Virus record (IMG/VR): IMGVR_UViG_3300031867_000035
Span: 1 to 64,000 of that record
Strand: one strand, 5' to 3'
DNA length: 64,000 nt
Source of the DNA: a virus
Taxonomy: Duplodnaviria > Caudoviricetes
Shown here: one piece after another, positions 25,968 to 35,718 of the stretch
Layout of the letters: every line of letters begins with the position of its first letter
How positions within the stretch are numbered: the first letter of the stretch is position 1
The notes under the pieces: model-generated
Told to the model about the DNA's origin: nothing
Databases searched by the model: none
Seen by the model: only the letters and a program-made list of their open reading frames with translations
Made by a program: the position numbers and the translations under genes

Positions 25968-26273
25968 TTACCAATTAATTTCTATAATATCAGGCTCATT
26001 CCAAGAATAACCTTCATCTCTAGTAATACATTGAATAATTTCAATCTTAGAAGTATCTTTATAATCTTCAAAGTACTTATGATATAACTTATTTATAATA
26101 GGGTTATCAAAAGTCTCTTCTTCTGTATAAGAATAATTCCAAATTAGTTCAGCCACTTGTTCAATCTTCTCCATTATTTCAGGCTTAGCTGTTGAACAAA
26201 TTAAAAAACTTAAATCTGAATTATCACCTGTATAAGTATCAATAAAATGATATAAATACTCTTTCTTCTCCAT
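25968..26273 (-). CDS. hypothetical protein
   Basis: start moved to MEKKEY after aaggag. Confidence 0.7.
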   Translation of the reverse strand: MEKKEYLYHFIDTYTGDNSDLSFLICSTAKPEIMEKIEQVAELIWNYSYTEEETFDNPIINKLYHKYFEDYKDTSKIEIIQCITRDEGYSWNEPDIIEINW

Positions 26274-26274
26274 A

Positions 26275-26502
26275 TTATCTTTCTCCTTTAGCTTCTTTAA
26301 TAAGTCTATACAATCTACCAGGGATGACAAACTTTTCATCACAAGCATCACAACATCTAGCATCTATGTTAAAGATAGGTTCACAAACGTTGCCGTTTGC
26401 ATCCTTCCACATAGCGCCAGCTGGATTGTTACCAAAATAATTAGGACAACCTTCCTTAACGATAGGCTGTCCGCAAATACAACATAATAATTTCTTTTCC
26501 AT
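26275..26502 (-). CDS. small Zn-binding protein, paralog A
   Basis: CCICG..GNNP.GAM..RCCDAC..FVIPGR. Confidence 0.75.
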   Translation of the reverse strand: MEKKLLCCICGQPIVKEGCPNYFGNNPAGAMWKDANGNVCEPIFNIDARCCDACDEKFVIPGRLYRLIKEAKGER

Positions 26503-26503
26503 A

Positions 26504-26716
26504 TTATCTTTCTCCTTTTGTATTCTTTATTAGTCTATAAATTCTACCAGGAATAACGAAAGCTTCGTTGCAAGCATCGCAACATCTTTCATCTTCCTTA
26601 AAAGTAGGAGTGCAAAGTCTATTAAATAAATCATAGTACATTGCACCTTCAGGATTATTACCATAACCCTCAATGTACGCACCACAAATACAACAAATTA
26701 ATTTCTTAGTTTCCAT
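26504..26716 (-). CDS. small Zn-binding protein, paralog B
   Basis: same motif set as the adjacent gene; both end IKxxKGER. Confidence 0.75.
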   Translation of the reverse strand: METKKLICCICGAYIEGYGNNPEGAMYYDLFNRLCTPTFKEDERCCDACNEAFVIPGRIYRLIKNTKGER

Positions 26717-26728
26717 TTCTTTTTCTCC

Positions 26729-27052
26729 TTAATAATTTAAATTAAATATTTTTAATACTATAGCTAAAGCTGCTGAGTTACATTCTCTTAAATCTTTAAG
26801 AGTTAATTTATACTCAGGGGTTCTGTAGCCATAGCCACAGTCCTGATATAAATCAACAACAATATTAGCAAGAAGTTGAATGTAACCATTATTAAAGTCA
26901 CTATAAATTATGCTAGTGAATGCACATAATAAATCAAAAACCTTATCTGAAACAGGTTTAGATAAGGCAGAATCAATAGCTAATAAGACTTGACAATCCA
27001 TATTGTCAACATCATTAGCCTTTAATAAGTCTCTTACAAAACTATATCGCAT
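26729..27052 (-). CDS. hypothetical protein
   Basis: ORF with RBS aggaggtg. Confidence 0.7.
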   Translation of the reverse strand: MRYSFVRDLLKANDVDNMDCQVLLAIDSALSKPVSDKVFDLLCAFTSIIYSDFNNGYIQLLANIVVDLYQDCGYGYRTPEYKLTLKDLRECNSAALAIVLKIFNLNY

Positions 27053-27053
27053 A

Positions 27054-27575
27054 CTATTTCACCTCCTTTCCTTGAGGATTTTCAAATGTGTAATGATTTA
27101 AACACTCGATGCTAACATACTTCTTGTATAGCTCGATGTTACAATTACACATTAAGAAGATAGCCTCTGCTTCATACTGGCCATTATCATAGAACAAACT
27201 ATGAAGACTGACCATAGTTCCGCAGAAGCTATTGTTTCTGAATCTGTTGTAATCAGCATCATAACTAAGGCTGACTTTATTGTCAGCTATAGTATGAGCA
27301 GATTGACAACACTTAAATCTCTTACAGATTTCAGGTCTAACAGGATAAATGCTGCAATGCTTGCAACTATCCTTAACAAAAAATGGACAACGATTATCAA
27401 ACTCGCCATCAGAAATATAAATGTTCTCTTGGATATTATGCTTCTTAATGTAAGCCTTAATATTCTTAACCTCACGCTTAGTAAGAGGTATAAAATCAAC
27501 ACAGCATTCTCCACAGTTGGAGCATTTATTACCAATACAACTGTTGATAATGCTTAAAATTGTTTCATCTTTCAT
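27054..27575 (-). CDS. YkgJ-family cysteine-cluster (Fe-S/Zn) protein
   Basis: CSNCGECC..RCPF..CSIYPVRPEICKRFKC. Confidence 0.85.
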   Translation of the reverse strand: MKDETILSIINSCIGNKCSNCGECCVDFIPLTKREVKNIKAYIKKHNIQENIYISDGEFDNRCPFFVKDSCKHCSIYPVRPEICKRFKCCQSAHTIADNKVSLSYDADYNRFRNNSFCGTMVSLHSLFYDNGQYEAEAIFLMCNCNIELYKKYVSIECLNHYTFENPQGKEVK

Positions 27576-27591
27576 TTTAAAAACCTTCTCC

Positions 27592-27969
27592 TTATTGTAC
27601 AATATTTTCTTTATTCTTCTCAAAGAACTCTTCGAATTCATCGAATGAAGAATCATCTTCTTCGTCCAAATTCAAATCATCTTTGATAGAAGCAAGAACT
27701 TCTTCAAACTTTTCAGCTGCCTCAGGATTTTTAAGGTGCAAACAAATGTCAATAACGCAACCTAAAAAATTAAAGCCTATGTTCTTCTCTAAGGTAGAGA
27801 ATAAAATTGCATAAGCTTTACAAACAGTGAAACAAGCCTCGCTTGTATCGTCAAGCAAAGAGTTAATGTTAAAGAATGTCTCAGTGTTAGCCTGAGCTAT
27901 TCCTTTAACAAGGTCATCTAATGTAAGACCAGTAGTCTTTTCAAAATCTTTTAAAGTTTTCTTTTCCAT
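27592..27969 (-). CDS. hypothetical protein
   Basis: ORF with RBS gaggaa. Confidence 0.7.
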   Translation of the reverse strand: MEKKTLKDFEKTTGLTLDDLVKGIAQANTETFFNINSLLDDTSEACFTVCKAYAILFSTLEKNIGFNFLGCVIDICLHLKNPEAAEKFEEVLASIKDDLNLDEEDDSSFDEFEEFFEKNKENIVQ

Positions 27970-27973
27970 ATTA

Positions 27974-29017
27974 TTATTCCTCTCTTTTTGTATAGTTTAA
28001 AACTTCTTCTTCAGTTTTAAAGAAGTGAATACCTGATGCACACTCTACATTATACATCAGGTCAAAATTATCTACCTCAATAGTTTTATCAACTTCATAA
28101 ATAAATGTATCATCAAAAAATGAAGTAGCCTTTTTATAATTTTGTTTACCATCAAGACTAGTAATACTAATTACCTTAGCCTTATTAGTTCGACATTTCG
28201 AATTGTTAATCGAAAAAACAATAGCTCCTTTAGGAATGCGAAGCTTGACAATCAAATTATTCTTGCAAAATTTATATCCTATTAAAGATTTCTTTAGGAT
28301 TACACCTAAACGAATCTTTTCCTTTTCATCAAGAATAGTAGTGTTTAAATTAGCATTATCAAATTCTACTCCATTTAAATATGTGTGACTTAAATTTGCA
28401 TAACTTAAATTTGCATAATTTAAATTTACACTTCTTAAAAATGCATAACTTAAGTCTGCGTTAGTTAAAACAGCACTAGATAAATCAGTATGAACTAACT
28501 TAGCGAAATTTAAATCTACTTTATATAAACAAATATCAGGCGCAGTAACAAATCTAAAATCTACACCATATAAATTTGCTTCTGTTAAATCAGCACCAGA
28601 TAAATTACAGCTTCTTAACTGTGCGTTTATTAAACAAGCAAAAGATAAATCTGCGTCAACGAGAACTACATTGTATAAACGTGCACCTTCTAAATTAATA
28701 CCACATAACTTTGCATTGTTAAACCTTATATCAGGTAACTCATCAGGTAATTCTGATTGACGCAAATCAGCATTAGTAAAATTAACAGCAGTTAAAGTTG
28801 CAAGTAAATTAGAATGATATAAAATAGCATCTCTAAATTTAGCGCTAGTTAAATTAGCATTACTAAAATTAGCATAACTTAAATCTAAATTACTAAAATC
28901 AGCATTAGATAAATCTAAACCACTGAAGTCAGCACACTTACCTTTTGAATGGTCAGCTAACCACTTCTTATGGTCAGCTAAAATCTTTTTAATTTCTTTC
29001 TTTGTAATTTTTTTCAT
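27974..29017 (-). CDS. pentapeptide-repeat protein with DUF5758-like C-terminal domain (paralog 1)
   Basis: A(D/N)LxxA repeats; C-terminus GYK..LRIPKGA..KCRTNKAKV..VECASGIHFF. Confidence 0.9.
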   Translation of the reverse strand: MKKITKKEIKKILADHKKWLADHSKGKCADFSGLDLSNADFSNLDLSYANFSNANLTSAKFRDAILYHSNLLATLTAVNFTNADLRQSELPDELPDIRFNNAKLCGINLEGARLYNVVLVDADLSFACLINAQLRSCNLSGADLTEANLYGVDFRFVTAPDICLYKVDLNFAKLVHTDLSSAVLTNADLSYAFLRSVNLNYANLSYANLSHTYLNGVEFDNANLNTTILDEKEKIRLGVILKKSLIGYKFCKNNLIVKLRIPKGAIVFSINNSKCRTNKAKVISITSLDGKQNYKKATSFFDDTFIYEVDKTIEVDNFDLMYNVECASGIHFFKTEEEVLNYTKREE

Positions 29018-29040
29018 AATAATTTTCCTCTCTTTTTATT

Positions 29041-30174
29041 CTAATAATTTTCTGCTTCTTCTCTAGTACGGAAGAAATGAATACCTGCGGTACACTCTAC
29101 ATTGTACCTTAAATCGAATTCATCAGGACATACTATATCACCTACCTTATATGTAAATTTTCCATCATACCAAGCAAGAGCCTGGTCATAAGTATTACCA
29201 TTATTATCAGTAATACTTATAACTTCAGCCTTATTGGTTCTGCACTTACCATTGTTAATCGAAAAAACAACAGCTCCTTTAGGAATACGAAGTTCAACAA
29301 TTAAATCATTAAGACATTTCTTATAACCTGTCATAGGATTATCTACTATAAGTCCGAGACGAATACTCTCCTTATCATCTAGGGAGGTACTGTTTAAAGT
29401 TGCATAATTAAAATCTGCCTCATCTAAATCTGCACCTTTTAAAGTAGCATAACTTAAATCAGCATACCTTAGATTAGCTTTAACAAAGTAAGACCTAAAG
29501 AAATTAGCACATTCACAATAAGTGTTCGCCAAGTCCGTACACTTAAAGTTCGTGTACTTAGCAGTAACGGATGCTAAATTAGCCTTAAATAAACCAGCCT
29601 CAGTTAAATTAGCGTGCATCAAGTCAGAGTGACTTAAATCTGCACCTACTAATTTAGCCTTTGTTAAATCAGCGGATTCTAATTCTGCATAACTTAACTT
29701 AGCATCATTTAAATAAGCCTCACTTAAATTAGCCTGAATTAAATGAGCATAAGTTAAGTCAGCACCAGTTAAATTGGCTTTAAACAATTTAACTTGATTT
29801 AAGTTAGCGTGCCTTAAACTAGCCTCACTTAAGGAAACATAACTTAAATCTACATTAGAAAAATAAGCAAAATTTAATTTTGCTCTTACTAAATTAGCAT
29901 CATTTAAATTGGCGTTGCTTAAATTGACATCTGTTAAATCAGCTTCTACTAATCTAGCGTGCCAGAAATTAGAGTTAATTAAAGTTGCACAACTTAAATT
30001 AGCCTGAGTTAAATCAGCGCCAATAAAAATAGCTCCTTTTAAATTAGCGTGACTTAAGTCGATACCTCTTAAATCTGCATTAGTAAAGTCAGCACAAACA
30101 CCTCCTTTACCTGCTAACCACTTATGATGATTAGCTAAAATTCTTTTTAATTCTGTCTTTGTTATTTTTCTCAT
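29041..30174 (-). CDS. pentapeptide-repeat protein with DUF5758-like C-terminal domain (paralog 2)
   Basis: same architecture; start MRKITK after gaggag. Confidence 0.9.
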   Translation of the reverse strand: MRKITKTELKRILANHHKWLAGKGGVCADFTNADLRGIDLSHANLKGAIFIGADLTQANLSCATLINSNFWHARLVEADLTDVNLSNANLNDANLVRAKLNFAYFSNVDLSYVSLSEASLRHANLNQVKLFKANLTGADLTYAHLIQANLSEAYLNDAKLSYAELESADLTKAKLVGADLSHSDLMHANLTEAGLFKANLASVTAKYTNFKCTDLANTYCECANFFRSYFVKANLRYADLSYATLKGADLDEADFNYATLNSTSLDDKESIRLGLIVDNPMTGYKKCLNDLIVELRIPKGAVVFSINNGKCRTNKAEVISITDNNGNTYDQALAWYDGKFTYKVGDIVCPDEFDLRYNVECTAGIHFFRTREEAENY

Positions 30175-30249
30175 AACAATTTCTCCTCGCCTGCTATATT
30201 TTTTTGTTAAGTATAATGACCGTTGGTTTAGCAGTCTTGCCATTATACT

Positions 30250-30332
30250 TTGAGTAATTAAATACTCAATTAGTAGTATGGATTATTTCTAACCCATACT
30301 ACTCGGTTGAATATTTAATTATTGCATTCAAC
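30250..30332 (-). ncRNA. three-hairpin intergenic RNA motif, copy A
   Basis: hairpins TTGAGTA/TACTCAA, AGTAGTATGG/CCATACTACT, GTTGAAT/ATTCAAC; homologous to 32032-32109. Confidence 0.5.
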
Positions 30333-30343
30333 ACAAACTTAAA

Positions 30344-30559
30344 TTAAAATTCTCTTATTATTTCATTTCTCTTCATAGCATCATATAATCTGTCTAAGAC
30401 AGACTTATCTTCTAAAGCAGCTATCTCTCTAACGGTTAAGAAATACTTTTCTCCACCAAAATTATCTCTGGTGTAATAATACCAAAGTCCATCTCTTCTG
30501 TCTTTAAAAGCGTGCCATACTTCTTTTCCTACATTTAATGTTATCTTTAATTCTTTCAT
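30344..30559 (-). CDS. hypothetical protein
   Basis: ORF with RBS gaggag. Confidence 0.7.
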   Translation of the reverse strand: MKELKITLNVGKEVWHAFKDRRDGLWYYYTRDNFGGEKYFLTVREIAALEDKSVLDRLYDAMKRNEIIREF

Positions 30560-30580
30560 TATTTTCTTCTCCTCTTCTTT

Positions 30581-31450
30581 TTAAAAATAATATTTTTCTG
30601 CTTCTTCTTTTGTTTTAAAGAAATGTATACCCGAAGTACAATCAACATTATACATTAAACTAAAACTATCTGGTTTTATAACATCACCTACCTTATAAAT
30701 AAATTTAGAATCATAAACCGATATAGCTTCTTCATAAGAATTACCTTCACTATCGGTGATACTAATTACTTTAACTTTATTAGTTCTACAATCAGTGTTG
30801 TTAATTGAGAACACAATCGCACCTTTAGGAATACGTAATTTTACTATGCGATTTCCAGAGCACTTCTTATATCCTATCATAGACTTTTCCAAAGTTATGC
30901 CACGGCGTATCTCCTCCTTCTTATCTAATGAAGCATCGTGTAAATCTGCACCTTGTAAATCTGCACCTTGTAAATCTGCACCATTTAAAAAGGCTCTTAA
31001 ATTTGAACTTATTAAAGAAGCGTAACTTAAGTTTGCCTTTCTTAAATCTGTTCTAAATAAACAAGCATCATTTAAATCTGCACCTTGTAAATCTGCATTT
31101 TGAAAATCAGCCAAACTTAAATTTGCACGATATAAATTAGCTTCTTTTAAAATAGCATAATTTAAATCAGCCTTTGTTAAATCAGCTCCTTTTAAATTTG
31201 CGTTACTAAAGTCTGCAAATTTAGCAGAATAAATATTTAAATAAGCATAACTTAAATCTGCACCTTTTAAATTTGTATTATTTAAAACCGCATTAAGTAA
31301 TACTGCCTTATATAAAGAAGCATTAGATAAATCAAGACCACTAAGGTCTACATTCTTTAAATTAAAACGCTGTCCATCTGGCATATTATTAAGCCACTCT
31401 ACGTGCTTCTCTAAAAGCACATTCAATTCTTTTTGTGTTAATGTTTTCAT
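30581..31450 (-). CDS. pentapeptide-repeat protein with DUF5758-like C-terminal domain (paralog 3)
   Basis: same architecture; includes 15-bp tandem repeat TAAATCTGCACCTTG at 30941-30982 (ADLQG). Confidence 0.9.
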   Translation of the reverse strand: MKTLTQKELNVLLEKHVEWLNNMPDGQRFNLKNVDLSGLDLSNASLYKAVLLNAVLNNTNLKGADLSYAYLNIYSAKFADFSNANLKGADLTKADLNYAILKEANLYRANLSLADFQNADLQGADLNDACLFRTDLRKANLSYASLISSNLRAFLNGADLQGADLQGADLHDASLDKKEEIRRGITLEKSMIGYKKCSGNRIVKLRIPKGAIVFSINNTDCRTNKVKVISITDSEGNSYEEAISVYDSKFIYKVGDVIKPDSFSLMYNVDCTSGIHFFKTKEEAEKYYF

Positions 31451-31540
31451 TTTCTTTTCCTCTCATATTTTTATAATATATTTTTTTGCCTGCAGCCCAG
31501 GCTCTGCTTCCAAGGCTGGCCGTTTACGCCAGCTAAATAA

Positions 31541-32025
31541 GGGACCCTAGTGTTTGAATAATGAAGCAGTCGGGTCCGAATCCAAAAAACTTTTCCTGTA
31601 GAAATAATGATACCCTATTGTTTTAATAATCTAAGTAACAATAGTATGTACAGAAAAAGTTTTTTTAAAACGGACCCTAGTGCTACAAAATCAATCAAGC
31701 TAGGTTGCATTAAGCGTTTTCATAGGGAAAAATGAGGTTTCAATATTTTTTCAGTGTATTTTCATAATTGTTTTCATAGATTTTTACCGAAATGCTAACA
31801 CACTCGACACAAAATCCACACTAAACAATTAGTAAAACAACACAAAAAATAAATTTAGCACTCGTCTAGTTAGAGTGCAACCTCGTTTTTGCCAGAAAAA
31901 GTGCAAAAGCAACCTAGCTTGTTCGAAATTAAAACAGTCGGGTCCGTGCACATCTCGGAGACATTTGTCATTCTCAGAGACATACATAGCTAGACCCTGC
32001 TGTAATAACTTTGAAACACTAGGGT
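31541..32025. other. non-coding element of nested inverted repeats (structured RNA or origin/packaging region)
   Basis: perfect IRs 31544-31555/32014-32025 and 31696-31708/31909-31921; long hairpin 31572-31677. Confidence 0.55.
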
Positions 32026-32031
32026 TTCAGA

Positions 32032-32109
32032 TTGAGTACTTAAATACTCAATTAGAGATACGGACTTTTATCAAGCCCGTGAATCTCTCGGCTGAGTATT
32101 CAAATACTC
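32032..32109 (-). ncRNA. three-hairpin intergenic RNA motif, copy B
   Basis: 23/24 identity to copy A over the first hairpin; covarying middle helix. Confidence 0.5.
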
Positions 32110-32133
32110 TTTAGGCCTTATAAGGCTAAAAGC

Positions 32134-32463
32134 TTAGGCTCTAAATGTGTTCCAGAAATAATATAGGAACATATCTACACAGTTACGATAATCCTTATCA
32201 CTTACTGTGAAGTCGAAATCATCTGTTCCATAGAAAGTAATTCTGTACTTGTCATTAAAGTAACTAACTGCAATCCAATCTTCAGATGGAGTGTAATCTA
32301 GAGAACTAGGGATACACTCATCATTGAAGTAATCCTTCATACATACAGGTCGAACGTAAGCAGGCTTACCACCCTTAGGTGCCTTAGCCTGAGCAGCTAC
32401 ATAGCGAGCGAATGATTCGCCGATTAACATTGTTAAATCTAATAAAAAGTTTTGTTTTGTCAT
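32134..32463 (-). CDS. hypothetical protein
   Basis: ORF with RBS gaggagg. Confidence 0.75.
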   Translation of the reverse strand: MTKQNFLLDLTMLIGESFARYVAAQAKAPKGGKPAYVRPVCMKDYFNDECIPSSLDYTPSEDWIAVSYFNDKYRITFYGTDDFDFTVSDKDYRNCVDMFLYYFWNTFRA

Positions 32464-32469
32464 ATTTGT

Positions 32470-33143
32470 TCCTCCTCACCTTGTTATGTTCAAGGCTGGT
32501 CTAATCTGCCGACCATCTCGCAAAATAAATGTAAATATTATATCTATAAGATAAAACTGATATCTTTAGTGTCCGTCAGTGGCGGACAGATAAAGCAATC
32601 ATAGAATAATCTGATAACCTTATAAGAGAGAGCTATAGTATCTCTACTATAGCATTCTCTTTCTTAGCCCATCTCAAAATGTCTTTGTAAGATGCAAAGC
32701 CTTCAGAGACTTTACTAGTAATCCTTTTATTACCTATAAAGTAATGAATTCCTCCATCTCTGGCATTTTGAAACATTGGTATAACTTCTGTTTCATATTC
32801 CTCATAGAAACAGGTTACGCCAAAAGCATCTAATACAATCTTATAAGATTTCATATTTTTGTTCTCCTTCTAGAGAGAATTAATCTCTCTTATAAGATTA
32901 CCAGATTCTATCACCAGCAGTAGGGTAACGAGTTTTTTCACGGCCTTTATCTTGACCATCGTCTCTCTAGCGAACAACCAGGGGACATCTCGATATGGTT
33001 CGACACACGCAATGTCATTCCTGTGTTCAGAGAAACTTTCTTATTCTGCTCTATTGCTCGAGCACTTTCATTATCTTACGCTCATTCATCAGACGTTCAG
33101 ACGGCACTAGGCCTTCTCGCAAATCTAATGCGTAAGCTGGTGA
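32470..33143 (-). ncRNA. candidate large structured RNA with embedded ORF
   Basis: closing stem 32911-32918/33136-33143, 24-bp stem 32608-32631/32884-32907, further hairpins; TATAAT on minus strand at 33165-33170. Confidence 0.45.
32633..32854 (-). CDS. 73-aa hypothetical protein enclosed by a 24-bp inverted repeat
   Basis: RBS aaggag, ATG, TAG. Confidence 0.7.
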   Translation of the reverse strand: MKSYKIVLDAFGVTCFYEEYETEVIPMFQNARDGGIHYFIGNKRITSKVSEGFASYKDILRWAKKENAIVEIL

Positions 33144-33428
33144 AAAGATTTATATATTAATAGGATTATATCCTAGGGTTTTTTATTTGTTATGTTGTTG
33201 AATATTATTATCCTTACTCGTATTAAATATATTTTTTTTGTTAGGTTGTGGTTTGTTTTGTATATATTTAATGGGTCGCTCAGATAAGAGGTACACCCCC
33301 TAAATAATAAACACAACTCAACATAATATATATATTAAATGGGATACAACATCAACATAATATATTTTTAGGACGGGTCACAGAATTTTCAGGATTTTTC
33401 AATTCACCCCTAGGTAACTTTCTCAAAA

Positions 33429-33473
33429 ACATTTGTCATTCCCCTTGACATTTGTCATTATTCGTGCTATACT
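33429..33473 (+). promoter_or_regulatory. sigma-70/A promoter with direct-repeat operator
   Basis: TTGACA(33445)-N17-TATACT(33468) with TG; ACATTTGTCATT at 33429 and 33448 flanking/overlapping the -35. Confidence 0.75.
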
Positions 33474-33535
33474 CTTAGTGTATAGAGGATAACTCCCTGG
33501 GGTAAACGCCCAGGAACTGCAAAGGGGGTAACACA

Positions 33536-34048
33536 ATGTATAAACTAAATAATAGATTATTTATTGTAACAGACATTTCTACCTTAGAGGAGAAGACATA
33601 TGAAGGTATGAGAGGATGCAGTGAGGCCACGGGTATCACAATGTATAAGCTACACCTGATAGCTGATGCTGGAGACAATAAGGATTGGTACGTCACTACT
33701 ACAAAAGGCAACGCCTACAAGGTGAGATGCACTGTGGATGTGAACCAGCCTGTTATTGTAGCCTATCCTGTAGTGCCTGATATGTTTGCACCTATAAAGT
33801 TTAAGAGTGTTACGAAGCTGATTCAGCAGTTTGGTATAGGTAAGAACACAATCTATAGAAGATGGGCCGAGGCTTACCCTGTGTATGAGGATAACCCTAC
33901 AGAGTTGATAGTCAAGTACTGGCAGCATAATACTCCAGTGACCTGCAAGAGTGGTAACGCCTATGGGGAGCAGTTCGTGCTAAGGTTCTACAAGGAGTAT
34001 AATAAGGGAGATAAAGAAGCTTTTGAAAAACATAAAGGTTATAAATAG
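33536..34048 (+). CDS. putative DNA-binding protein with two NUMOD1-like HTH modules
   Basis: KTYEGMRGCSEATGITMYKL and IKFKSVTKLIQQFGIGKNTIYRR. Confidence 0.45.
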   Translation: MYKLNNRLFIVTDISTLEEKTYEGMRGCSEATGITMYKLHLIADAGDNKDWYVTTTKGNAYKVRCTVDVNQPVIVAYPVVPDMFAPIKFKSVTKLIQQFGIGKNTIYRRWAEAYPVYEDNPTELIVKYWQHNTPVTCKSGNAYGEQFVLRFYKEYNKGDKEAFEKHKGYK

Positions 34049-34058
34049 GAGGAAGAGT

Positions 34059-34616
34059 ATGAATAATTTTATTACAGAGATTAGTGAAGAGGATTTCAAA
34101 AGATTACACCTGATTGGTTATGATAATGAGAGGGTAGATAATGGTGATGGTAGCTTCAGTTTCAAGTTCATCAAGAAGAGTTTGAATGATAAGCTCGAGG
34201 AATATAAGAAGTACCTTGCAGAGACTATCCTAAAGGATAAGGTAGACTTACCTTGGGTTATGGCAGTATGTGTACATATAGAGCCTACGGAAGAAGGGGT
34301 AGCTAAAGAGAGGGAAGTGCTGCAGAATTTTACAGCTAACATTAATCATCCAAGACACGGTGAGGTTATTGATTATAGTAAAGAGGCTTATCTTCAAGCT
34401 CTATATAATTTCAGCTACTATGATAAGTGGATGGATAGAATGGGTCACACTACCTATGAGTTTGGCATTGGGCTAGACCATTTATATTCTACAAGGGATA
34501 AGTGGATGGCAAAAGGTTGGATAGATTATTTTGAGGTTAGGAAGAAGGATACGAAAGCAGTATATATTATTCATCTTGAAGGAAAGCCAGAGGATTATTT
34601 AAATGGTAAAAATTAA
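34059..34616 (+). CDS. hypothetical protein
   Basis: start MNNFIT after aggagg. Confidence 0.7.
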   Translation: MNNFITEISEEDFKRLHLIGYDNERVDNGDGSFSFKFIKKSLNDKLEEYKKYLAETILKDKVDLPWVMAVCVHIEPTEEGVAKEREVLQNFTANINHPRHGEVIDYSKEAYLQALYNFSYYDKWMDRMGHTTYEFGIGLDHLYSTRDKWMAKGWIDYFEVRKKDTKAVYIIHLEGKPEDYLNGKN

Positions 34617-34899
34617 AGTTACAGATATATTATTAAACCCACTTGTCAAAACAGATTACACAGTGGTCATTGATGATGAAGAAGAAAGCTTAAACAATGC
34701 TATCATCGAGATTCTAAGAGCTGAACAGACAGAGAAGGAAGACTTAAACACTTTAATCAGGAAGTATAATTCAAGTGCTAGAAGATTCAACAGAGGTCTA
34801 TCGAATACTATTTTCATTTACACACATCCTGCAGAGGGTGTAGTGCTAAGAACCGTCATAGAGATTTATAAACAGATAGCAAAGGAGGTGAGCCTATAA
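34603..34899 (+). CDS. hypothetical protein
   Basis: ORF, RBS gagga. Confidence 0.65.
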   Translation: MVKIKVTDILLNPLVKTDYTVVIDDEEESLNNAIIEILRAEQTEKEDLNTLIRKYNSSARRFNRGLSNTIFIYTHPAEGVVLRTVIEIYKQIAKEVSL

Positions 34900-35135
34900 T
34901 GGATTTCGGTGAGGCATTAAGACTTCTAAAGCAAGGCGGAAAAGTTGCAAGACACGGCTGGAACGGCAAAGGTATGTGGCTAGAGCTACAGAGACCTGAT
35001 GTACATTCTAAGATGACTCTACCTTATGTGTACCTTAATTACCCTGTAGGTGATAAGTACCACAATGGTTGCAGAGTTCCGTGGTTAGCATCACAGACAG
35101 ATATGCTAGAGGAAGACTGGGAGGAAGTAAAGTAA
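34899..35135 (+). CDS. tad2: DUF2829 / Tad2-family nucleotide-signal sponge (anti-defence)
   Basis: MDFGEALRLLKQG..VARHGWNGKGMWL..PWLASQTDMLEEDW parallels SPO1 Tad2. Confidence 0.88.
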   Translation: MDFGEALRLLKQGGKVARHGWNGKGMWLELQRPDVHSKMTLPYVYLNYPVGDKYHNGCRVPWLASQTDMLEEDWEEVK

Positions 35136-35137
35136 AG

Positions 35138-35464
35138 ATGAACGCACAAAAGCCAGAGGATGTTATAAAGAGCACCCAAGACTTGAACATCAGAATGATG
35201 GAGTTCCTTCTATCACAGAAGGATAAGAAGCTTAGCTACGCTGATGTAGCAAGTATGATAGCAAGGTCGTTTTCAGAGTTTGAGAAGGATTCTAAAAAAG
35301 AGACAAGTCATTTCAATAAGGAGAAGCTAGCTGGTAAATCACCTGAGCTTGTCTACAGTATGACGATGTACGCTTGCTTCACTCAGTTAATAGGGGATTT
35401 CTTATTCTGTTGTTCACCAGAAGAGGCAGAAAAAATTACTGCACTATTGCAAAAGAAAGATTAA
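35138..35464 (+). CDS. hypothetical protein
   Basis: start MNAQKP after ggagg. Confidence 0.65.
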   Translation: MNAQKPEDVIKSTQDLNIRMMEFLLSQKDKKLSYADVASMIARSFSEFEKDSKKETSHFNKEKLAGKSPELVYSMTMYACFTQLIGDFLFCCSPEEAEKITALLQKKD

Positions 35465-35475
35465 AGCTATATAAT
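35447..35475 (+). promoter_or_regulatory. promoter for the tRNA
   Basis: TTGCAA-N17-TATAAT; hairpin GTACAGC/GCTGTAC at 35482-35499 in the leader. Confidence 0.75.
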
Positions 35476-35505
35476 ACTAGAGTACAGCTAAGGCTGTACC
35501 TACAT

Positions 35506-35581
35506 CGGAGAGTAGAGCAGTGGTTAGCTCGCTTGGCTCATACCCAGGAGGACGGGGGTTCAAATCCCTCCTCTCCAACCA
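35506..35581 (+). tRNA. initiator tRNA-fMet (CAT), CCA encoded
   Basis: 76-nt cloverleaf; C1xA72 mismatch, A11:U24, anticodon loop CTCATAC, TTCAAAT T-loop, 3' ACCA. Confidence 0.95.
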
Positions 35582-35617
35582 TATTATTCTTTAATAGCTT
35601 TTTTGCTCACTATTAAA

Positions 35618-35653
35618 AAGATAAGGCAACAGATAACGTTGTCTTATTTTTTT
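35618..35653 (+). terminator. terminator after tRNA, directly followed by extended -10 TGATATAAT (35659-35667) for the giant gene
   Basis: stem AAGATAAGGCAAC/GTTGTCTTATTTT then T-run. Confidence 0.7.
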
Positions 35654-35718
35654 GTCTATGATATAATTAATATAGATAATCGTTTATCCAAAATAAATAG
35701 AGAGGGGTCTACACAAAA

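Follow-up and report, generated by a model that had tools for sequence, protein, structure and literature searches.

A conserved, predicted structured RNA domain and an adjoining gene cassette with complementary ends at the divergent hub of a ruminant-gut phage

The divergent hub of a phage (Duplodnaviria; Caudoviricetes) recorded as IMGVR_UViG_3300031867_000035 raises the question of how a small gene bracketed by a near-perfect inverted repeat is related to the conserved sequence next to it, and whether the repeat acts in RNA or in DNA. The window, which is the whole stretch of DNA analysed here, comprises 64,000 nucleotides (nt) of this 76-kb IMG/VR virus record (G000). Rightward genes run from position 33536 and leftward early genes occupy the minus strand, and the leftward open reading frames (ORFs) are preceded by strong Shine–Dalgarno sequences (SDs; AGAAGGAGAA, GGUGAGGAGGAA). 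A first-pass annotation made from the sequence alone described positions 32470-33143 as a structured minus-strand RNA holding a 73-amino-acid (aa) ORF inside the loop of a 24-bp stem. The analysis presented here leads to a joint reading, with about an even chance of being right, in which a stable structured leader RNA is accompanied by an accessory gene that is looped out by a duplex suited to ribonuclease III (RNase III).

Alignments of the putative RNA domain consist of three sequences, namely the window, L002 and G001. L002 is a JGI contig of 1,828 bp whose colinearity with the window extends from the hub as far as about position 32540, with 83% identity overall. By segment, the identity is 79.5% in the upstream intergenic DNA, 79.4% in the domain, 23 of 24 positions in the 5' arm of the inverted repeat, 87.8% in the 73-aa ORF (ORF73), 24 of 24 in the 3' arm and 91.8% in the following 73 nt, after which it collapses to 42%. 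G001 (IMGVR_UViG_3300037400_001903, 77 kb) was reached through the family of the neighbouring 170-aa protein. Parts of the stretch are also contained in 24 public runs from 16 studies, mostly of bovine gut, and the contig evidence given below comes from four runs (DNA: X2, X4 and X6; RNA: X24) for the parts that their contigs cover. The relatives seen in X2, X4 and X6 include a more distant one whose match is confined to 32949-33015.

The RNA part of the locus consists of the following features:
32911-33143, minus strand: conserved non-coding structured RNA domain of about 233 nt, as judged from its fold, its conservation and the lack of an Rfam match
33143-33136 with 32918-32911, minus strand: closing helix P1 (TCACCAGC/GCTGGTGA), read from the sequence

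The G+C content of the domain is 0.43 compared with 0.27-0.34 in its flanks, in agreement with the earlier description of a GC-richer stretch of about 230 nt closed by P1. The domain shows 77% nt identity between G000 and G001 (blastn E 2.5e-39; nhmmer 5.6e-80) and is better conserved than the flanking genes, for which the identities are 61.5% nt and 57% aa (ORF109) and 73% nt and 70% aa (the 170-aa gene). Because single-base indels together with stops or frame changes affect every frame, leaving no frame open in all three sequences, the domain is non-coding. An antisense ORF within it (52 aa in the window and 75 aa in G001) was rejected because 1-nt indels shift the frames and the window has a stop. 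A search of the whole window against Rfam 15 at the gathering score found tRNA-Met only, which is the sole tRNA in the window, at 35506. At E<=10 the region 32000-33700 gave chance-level matches only, none of them on the domain core, and none of the known aptamers in Rfam matched the domain. Families without a match to the domain include group I introns, hammerheads, 6S, phi29 pRNA, Y RNA-like RNAs and riboswitches, in line with the first-pass remark that the RNA was not recognised as a known Rfam family. The element 3' of the domain differs between the phages: the window has a gene cassette there, and G001 a hairpin that lacks a U-run. Inside the domain, minus-sense UGCUCGAGCA (about 33047-33056) is a perfect 10-nt palindrome containing CTCGAG and is invariant in the three domains; G001 does not keep the hairpin that is predicted to surround it in the window, and the palindrome might serve dimerisation or protein binding.

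The interpretation that the domain is a structured minus-strand RNA, as the first-pass annotation had proposed, is supported by the energy and the strand asymmetry of its fold, by compensatory changes and changes to G.U, by its conservation and by a metatranscriptome contig. The single-sequence fold of the window domain in the minus sense has an energy of -77.5 kcal/mol (z -4.5, reached by 0 of 200 shuffles), compared with -61 kcal/mol (z -2.0) for the plus strand of the same domain. The consensus fold of the three sequences has an energy of -49.9 kcal/mol against -34.0 +/- 4.0 kcal/mol for column shuffles (0 of 300, z -4.0), and the antisense consensus, at -37.0 kcal/mol, is 13 kcal/mol weaker than the minus sense. 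Covariation was tested on four stems that were named beforehand from the window alone and then checked in L002 and G001. All 8 pairs of P1 are kept in the relatives, with a G-C to C-G change in G001. The stem TTACGC/GCGTAA becomes UCCGU/ACGGA through two compensatory pairs, and AACCA/UGGUU becomes AACCG/UGGUU, in which an A-U pair turns into G.U and the helix is kept. The pre-named stems thus hold 3 compensatory pairs, compared with 0-1 when the partners are slid by 1-3 columns, and a score as high as the one observed occurs in 23 of 500 shuffles (n = 3). RNAalifold adds a GGC/GCC to GCC/GGC hairpin swap and about 10 one-sided changes that stay paired only through minus-strand G.U, the compensatory pairs being located in P1, P2 and the GGC/GCC hairpin. 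The covariation across these three sequences is only suggestive. All inner stems listed by the first-pass annotation are found in the window, and three of the four named stems, including P1, are kept in the relatives.

The strand asymmetry of the fold and the roughly 10 one-sided changes of G.U type, which would be mismatches on the other strand, speak against the alternative that the domain is conserved as DNA, for example as an origin, an operator array or a promoter-proximal element, or that it is an ordinary 5' untranslated region whose fold has no function. The compensatory changes in stems named before the relatives had been seen, and an RNA contig limited to the domain, point in the same direction. 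This alternative is considered quite unlikely, even though the domain lies at the strand-switch point, the minimum of the cumulative GC skew, the adjacent intergenic DNA is as well conserved relative to L002 as the domain itself, the palindrome TGCTCGAGCA is invariant in the three sequences and the covariation is not significant under the RNAalifold null. A further alternative is that the domain is a ribozyme of a group I-like or hammerhead-like kind, from whose transcript the ORF segment would be spliced out or circularised. The window does contain CUGAUGA followed by GAAAG, but models of group I introns, hammerheads and other ribozymes give no match even at E<=10, the G001 domain has nothing to splice, and the RNA and DNA contigs show no joints. 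A group I-like domain was rejected since there is neither a model match nor an exon context, and a hammerhead was rejected since CUGAUGA is lost in G001 (GUCAAUGA) and stem II cannot form. A ribozyme is considered extremely improbable.

Two features bear on transcription of the domain:
32932-33141, no strand assigned: stretch under the X24 contig, a 210-nt metatranscriptome contig that matches over its whole length with 8 differences
33149-33154, minus strand: -10-like TATAAA, common to the window and L002, with TAGATA at the same spacing in G001

X24 is a bovine-gut metatranscriptome, and it has a single contig on 32100-33600, which leaves ORF73, the arms and the upstream region uncovered. 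By our own estimate, the chance that a 210-nt piece falls within the 233-nt target of an 801-nt query is about 4%. Logan contigs such as this one carry no strand, true ends or level. The transcript may start near A33141, in the first bases of P1 and 7 nt below TATAAA, and the end of the X24 contig at 33141 coincides with this predicted start and gives it weak support; such a start would place the domain at the 5' terminus. The TATAAT that had been proposed just above the domain is present in the window at 33165-33170, with ATAACA 17 nt upstream, but it is not conserved. Two tandem TATATTATGTTG motifs at 33315-33330 and 33349-33364 (minus strand), 34 nt apart, are fully conserved in the three phages; there is no other mismatch-free copy in the window, and they may be leftward promoters or binding sites.

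The second part of the locus is a cassette with the following features, including the hairpin that follows it:
32590-32908, minus strand: cassette of 319 bp comprising both arms, the SD, ORF73 and 18 nt of 3' flanking sequence; G001 has the 5 nt ACTTT in its place
32884-32907, minus strand: 5' arm of the long stem (AAUCUGGUAAUCUUAUAAGAGAGA), which starts 3 nt after P1, from an inverted-repeat search and a pairing model
32872-32890, minus strand: local alternative hairpin AGAGAGA-UUAAU-UCUCUCU, which shares bases with the 5' arm at its inner end and lies immediately 5' of the SD (GGAG, 32864-32867)
32633-32854, minus strand: ORF73, protein-coding, 73 aa, an ORFan of the phage lineage with the SD AGAAGGAGAA upstream
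32632-32653, minus strand: 9-bp hairpin over the last ORF73 codons and the stop, which stacks on the long stem and adjoins the 3' arm
32608-32631, minus strand: 3' arm of the long stem (UCUCUCUUAUAAGGUUAUCAGAUU), directly 3' of the ORF73-end hairpin and identical in L002
32570-32588, minus strand: conserved hairpin UGUCCG-loop-CGGACA, 3' of the cassette in the window and L002 and directly 3' of the domain in G001

The substitution pattern of ORF73, with a dN/dS of 0.21 and 7/5/15 differences at the three codon positions, indicates a real gene under purifying selection, and so the 73-aa ORF with a ribosome-binding site that had been called from the window is borne out by its coding signature. 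A large protein collection contains five relatives at 78-89% identity. Pfam, PHROGs and the ESM Atlas provide no lead, AlphaFold2 gives no confident fold (mean predicted local distance difference test score, 51), and a profile search of 1.84 billion representatives returned only its own cluster and repetitive chance matches (P0018 and P0019). The hairpin at the end of ORF73 is kept in L002 through a U-A to G.U change, in which both sides have changed, and a G-C to G.U change.

The match of G001 by blastn and nhmmer is confined to the domain, and G001 has neither ORF73 nor the arms. In the manual alignment, the G001 junction is GGTGGTGATA-ACTTT-CTGTCCGC; 3' of the closing helix, G001 reads GGTGGTGATA-ACTTT-CTGTCCGCGATGGACGGACAC, followed by the ORF109 homolog, and the window counterpart is GCTGGTGATA, the 319 nt with the arms, SD, ORF73 and 18 nt, and then CTGTCCGCCACTGACGGACAC. 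Since G001 keeps the domain and the hairpin but lacks the gene and the arms together, the gene and the arms form one presence/absence unit, which sits between the domain and the conserved hairpin and outside the domain. Therefore, of the proposal of a large non-coding RNA with an inserted ORF, the part that stands is that the ORF and the stem behave as an insert, for which G001 provides the relative without an ORF that the first-pass annotation had suggested looking for; the ORF lies outside the 230-nt domain itself. The cassette lies in the same place and the same orientation in L002 and in the DNA contigs of X4 and X6, which come from two further bovine or gut studies, and the X2 contig covers it partly (32654-33125, with the 5' arm and most of ORF73). 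The UGUCCG/CGGACA stem is identical in all three sequences, with a loop that differs in G001. Over the 51 nt that extend from this hairpin to about 32540, the window and L002 show no difference. All three downstream hairpins named at first pass are present; TGTCCG/CGGACA is the conserved one, whereas TGGTC/GACCA and CCTTG/CAAGG lie in a stretch without homology in the relatives.

The arms of 24 nt are complementary at 22 of 24 positions (92%) and lie 252 nt apart, bracketing the ribosome-binding site and stop of ORF73 as first described, and they form the best inverted repeat within 26000-35700 (9.7 kb). Other inverted repeats that bracket genes in this interval are 71-83% complementary and lie mostly within pentapeptide repeats, revealing no general theme, and a 31-nt, 71% repeat that brackets ORF109 was set aside as unconvincing because it rests on a shared palindrome. 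The arm sequence was not found elsewhere in G000 or G001. Both non-Watson-Crick positions in the window arms are G.U on the minus strand, and an A to G change in the 5' arm of L002 yields a third G.U. Since all three departures are G.U and would be A.C on the other strand, selection on the minus-strand RNA is favoured, which extends the argument for RNA pairing that had been made from the window's two departures. In models of the full-length transcripts of the window and L002, the arms are predicted to pair with a probability of 0.8-1.0. Beyond a 3-nt bulge, 3-4 further pairs (G32908/A32909/U32910 with C32604/U32603/A32602) can extend the stem, making 27-28 bp possible, and the stem therefore begins almost at the foot of P1.

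The arms could also act as a translation switch, in which local pairing of the 5' arm during transcription, with UCUCUCU or else through 12 bp with AAUCUUAUAAGAUU at codons 2-6, would hide the start region of ORF73 until pairing of the 3' arm frees the start, so that ORF73 would be translated only from complete transcripts. Positions 32888-32899 and 32837-32848 are complementary at 12 of 12 positions, and L002 retains both the local 7-bp hairpin found in the window and the CTTATAAG core at the ORF73 codons. Such a switch is nevertheless considered very unlikely: the SD and the AUG lie outside both arms, the Y-K codons that form the palindrome are also constrained as protein, and the long stem is predicted to dominate the equilibrium, with a probability of about 1.0 compared with 0.01-0.06 for the local AGAGAGA/UCUCUCU hairpin. 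The local hairpin that had been thought to compete with the long stem thus exists but is thermodynamically negligible, and it might arise only briefly, while the 3' arm has yet to be transcribed.

These observations lead to a plausible mechanism for the joint reading of leader RNA and looped-out gene. The domain would be a multi-helix RNA, with its ends joined by P1, and would form the 5' end of the leftward early transcript or lie close to it. Burial of the 5' end in P1 would protect it from 5'-end-dependent decay, and the domain would then outlast the remaining message. It may control the early operon in cis or stabilise it, or it may be a trans-acting early RNA like those of the crAss-like phage phi14:2 discussed below. 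Either the window lineage acquired the cassette between the domain and the TGTCCG/CGGACA hairpin or G001 lost it from there, and pairing of the arms would loop ORF73 out and bring the domain and the hairpin side by side again, as in G001. A 24-bp duplex is a standard type of substrate for host RNase III, and a cut by this enzyme would yield three RNAs, namely the domain, a mini-mRNA for ORF73 with its ends paired, and the message downstream. Two hallmarks of inserts of the intervening-sequence (IVS) type that are processed by RNase III are found here, namely a near-perfect end duplex of about 20 bp or more and the presence or absence of the insert as a unit.

Several results weigh against this reading. 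No RNase III gene was found in the G000 and G001 records, which are 71-76% complete. Single-sequence folds of the domain are milder in L002 (z -1.7) and G001 (z -2.7), the GCAAT/ATTGC stem is broken in both relatives and was dropped, and the 5 compensatory pairs counted by RNAalifold are not above a shuffle null of 3.1 (50 of 300; n = 3). The covariation that the first-pass annotation had proposed to test among homologs is suggestive in the named stems and does not stand out in the RNAalifold count. The X24 contig is thin evidence, being a single piece of 210 nt at depth 2.7 for which DNA carry-over is possible. The tandem TATATTATGTTG motifs could be the true promoters, and the 5' terminus would then lie elsewhere than at the domain. 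Between the window and L002 the arms agree at 47 of 48 positions, compared with differences of 12% in ORF73 and 21% in the domain, and because this constraint exceeds what pairing needs, a DNA-level or sequence-specific role of the arms has to be considered. Each arm also holds a YCTTATAAGR palindrome that recurs only in the same 780-bp stretch, which fits sequence-specific recognition. The palindromes are as follows:
32116-32125, 32618-32627, 32839-32848 and 32888-32897, no strand: four YCTTATAAGR palindromes, the sole copies in the 76-kb record, with none in G001
about 32543-32553, no strand: degenerate fifth palindrome (ATCTTATAGAT), located exactly where the homology between the window and L002 ends

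The four sites lie in both arms, at ORF73 codons 3-5 and at the tip of a hairpin just 3' of ORF109, and the cluster, confined to 32116-32897, looks like a junction or binding signal. The main rival, which is somewhat unlikely, is therefore that the arms act at the DNA level, either as cassette ends in recombination or transposition or as sites for a dimeric protein on YCTTATAAGR, the RNA duplex being a by-product. In keeping with this, the presence/absence unit ends within a few bases of the arms, and, the palindrome being symmetric, the arms can equally well be taken for a single hairpin whose tip was opened by an insert, with an 8-bp CTTATAAG core duplicated and flanked by AGAGA...TCTCT ends. 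As regards a miniature inverted-repeat transposable element, terminal inverted repeats are present, but target duplication is ambiguous because the CTTATAAG core is palindromic, with no clear duplication outside the repeat, and there is one copy of the cassette in G000 and none in G001. Neither record contains a match to a transposase or to a serine or tyrosine recombinase, within the completeness given above. An inverton is at odds with the single orientation of the segment in three DNA runs and L002, and no flipped, excised or joined segment appears in the contigs of X2, X4 and X6, although contigs drop rare variants; the inversion check that had been called for thus found no inversion in these contigs. 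The bias of all three departures towards G.U in the RNA sense is not predicted by DNA sites.

T4-type phages shuffle ORFans between repeated PeSL cassettes and form mini-circles (PMC2839356), PeSLs being direct repeats, with a sigma-70 promoter and a terminator hairpin, around an ORFan (PMC2839356, PMC4122927). As in those cassettes, a small ORFan between repeated structured motifs varies here among close relatives, and the motifs mark module junctions. Unlike PeSLs, the flanks here are inverted and pair with each other in RNA, and no recognisable promoter, that is, no sigma-70-like site on the minus strand, is seen in the arms.

For the reading in which the arms act as an RNA duplex, parallels are found in both phages and bacteria. 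RNase III sites are known from the early polycistronic RNAs of phages, such as the R sites of T7 and the sites of SP82/SPO1 that are cut by Bacillus RNase III, and these are local hairpins with internal loops between genes. Like them, the element described here is double-stranded, belongs to an early transcript and could separate messages and leave protective paired ends; unlike them, its nearly perfect duplex joins arms 252 nt apart, with a whole gene between them. In this respect it appears closer to the processing stems of 16S/23S rRNA (PMC6582327). The crAss-like phage phi14:2, which has a virion RNA polymerase, produces two highly abundant and persistent non-coding RNAs with no function assigned, which are intergenic, lie in the early region and are present from the earliest time point (bioRxiv 10.1101/2020.03.07.982082). 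The domain resembles them as a non-coding intergenic RNA of an early region; the host and the lineage differ, the evidence for expression here is a single metatranscriptome contig, and the likeness is one of description, not of sequence or structure. By analogy, the RNase III sites of early transcripts and the phi14:2 RNAs appear to be the nearest phage parallels.

The nearest described parallel to the cassette itself would be the ORF-bearing IVS of 23S rRNA. In Coxiella burnetii, this stem-bounded insert carries an ORF and is cut by RNase III, and the flanking rRNA pieces stay functional (PMC4990558). The cassette shares with it a length of a few hundred bases within a structured-RNA unit, paired ends, a small ORF and a presence that varies among lineages. 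Unlike the IVS, it is carried by a phage early leader RNA instead of rRNA and lies beside the domain instead of within a helix; ORF73, with its strong SD, shows purifying selection, in contrast to the S23p of the IVS, which is decaying and apparently not made, and cleavage here is only predicted.

Searches for relatives beyond L002 and G001 in IMG/VR, GTDB genomes and INPHARED yielded chance matches only. Neither blastn nor tblastn against INPHARED found further homologs of the region, and IMG/VR searched with ORF73, ORF109 and the N-terminus of a giant protein yielded no further relatives. A hub 18-mer searched in IMG/VR and GTDB found G001 again together with chance matches, nhmmer gave no further copies, and two domain patterns scanned in GTDB genomes gave zero matches. 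L003 and L004, obtained from a DNA-pattern scan of IMG/VR, were rejected as chance matches, as was L005, from a metagenome-assembled genome of Blautia, which lies inside a 433-aa ORF with what look like membrane-protease sequence features.

Other features of the hub and its surroundings are as follows. At 33395-33450 (minus-sense), a 45-nt block, AATGACAAATGTCAAGGGGAATGACAAATGTTTTTGAGAAAGTT, with AATGACAAATGT occurring twice, is identical in the window and G001; the L002 contig starts inside this block and is identical over the 41 nt that it holds. The complement of the block carries the TTGACA of a rightward promoter-like site at 33445-33473 (plus strand), which is sigma-70-like at 11 of 12 positions (TTGACA-17-TATACT with TG), and the block is probably the hub promoter plus an operator. 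The first rightward gene (33536-34048, plus strand) encodes the 170-aa protein, which matches NUMOD1 and HTH_7 only weakly, under the Pfam cut-offs, and has ten metagenomic relatives at 53-99% identity, 4 of the 10 with a precomputed NUMOD1 match; a DNA-binding regulator and the remnant of a homing-endonuclease binding module are both possible identities for it. This NUMOD1-like gene directly follows the hub in the window (33470-33536), whereas in G001 (L006:983-2922) six small plus-strand ORFs (66-207 aa) stand between the hub and a 174-aa NUMOD1-like gene, which is a module-level difference. In L002:961-1302, the ORF109 homolog has an in-frame TAA after codon 59, with the frame continuing to the conserved C-terminus; possible explanations are readthrough, a nonsense mutation and an error in the assembly. 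A hairpin, GCUGGC-GUAAACG-GCCAGC, lies upstream of the pentapeptide-repeat gene at 31515-31533 (minus strand), and L002 terminates in ...GGCGTAAACG.

A bolder version of the joint reading is that the domain and the TGTCCG/CGGACA hairpin together constitute a new class of phage early RNA, acting as a scaffold, a decoy or a catalyst, into which a translated gene has been inserted and from which it is freed by RNase III. This is unlikely; if true, no earlier case would be known of a protein-coding insert resembling an intervening sequence in a phage non-coding RNA, and one transcript would give rise to both a functional RNA and a self-insulating mini-mRNA. A conserved folded RNA that heads an early transcript would offer a handle on early gene expression in an undescribed lineage of ruminant-gut phages. 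The cassette shows a possible way of adding a gene within a structured transcript while leaving the fold undisturbed, in which pairing of the arms would hold the gene in a loop and probably make it a target for RNase III, and the two phages, G000 with the cassette and G001 without it, constitute a natural experiment.

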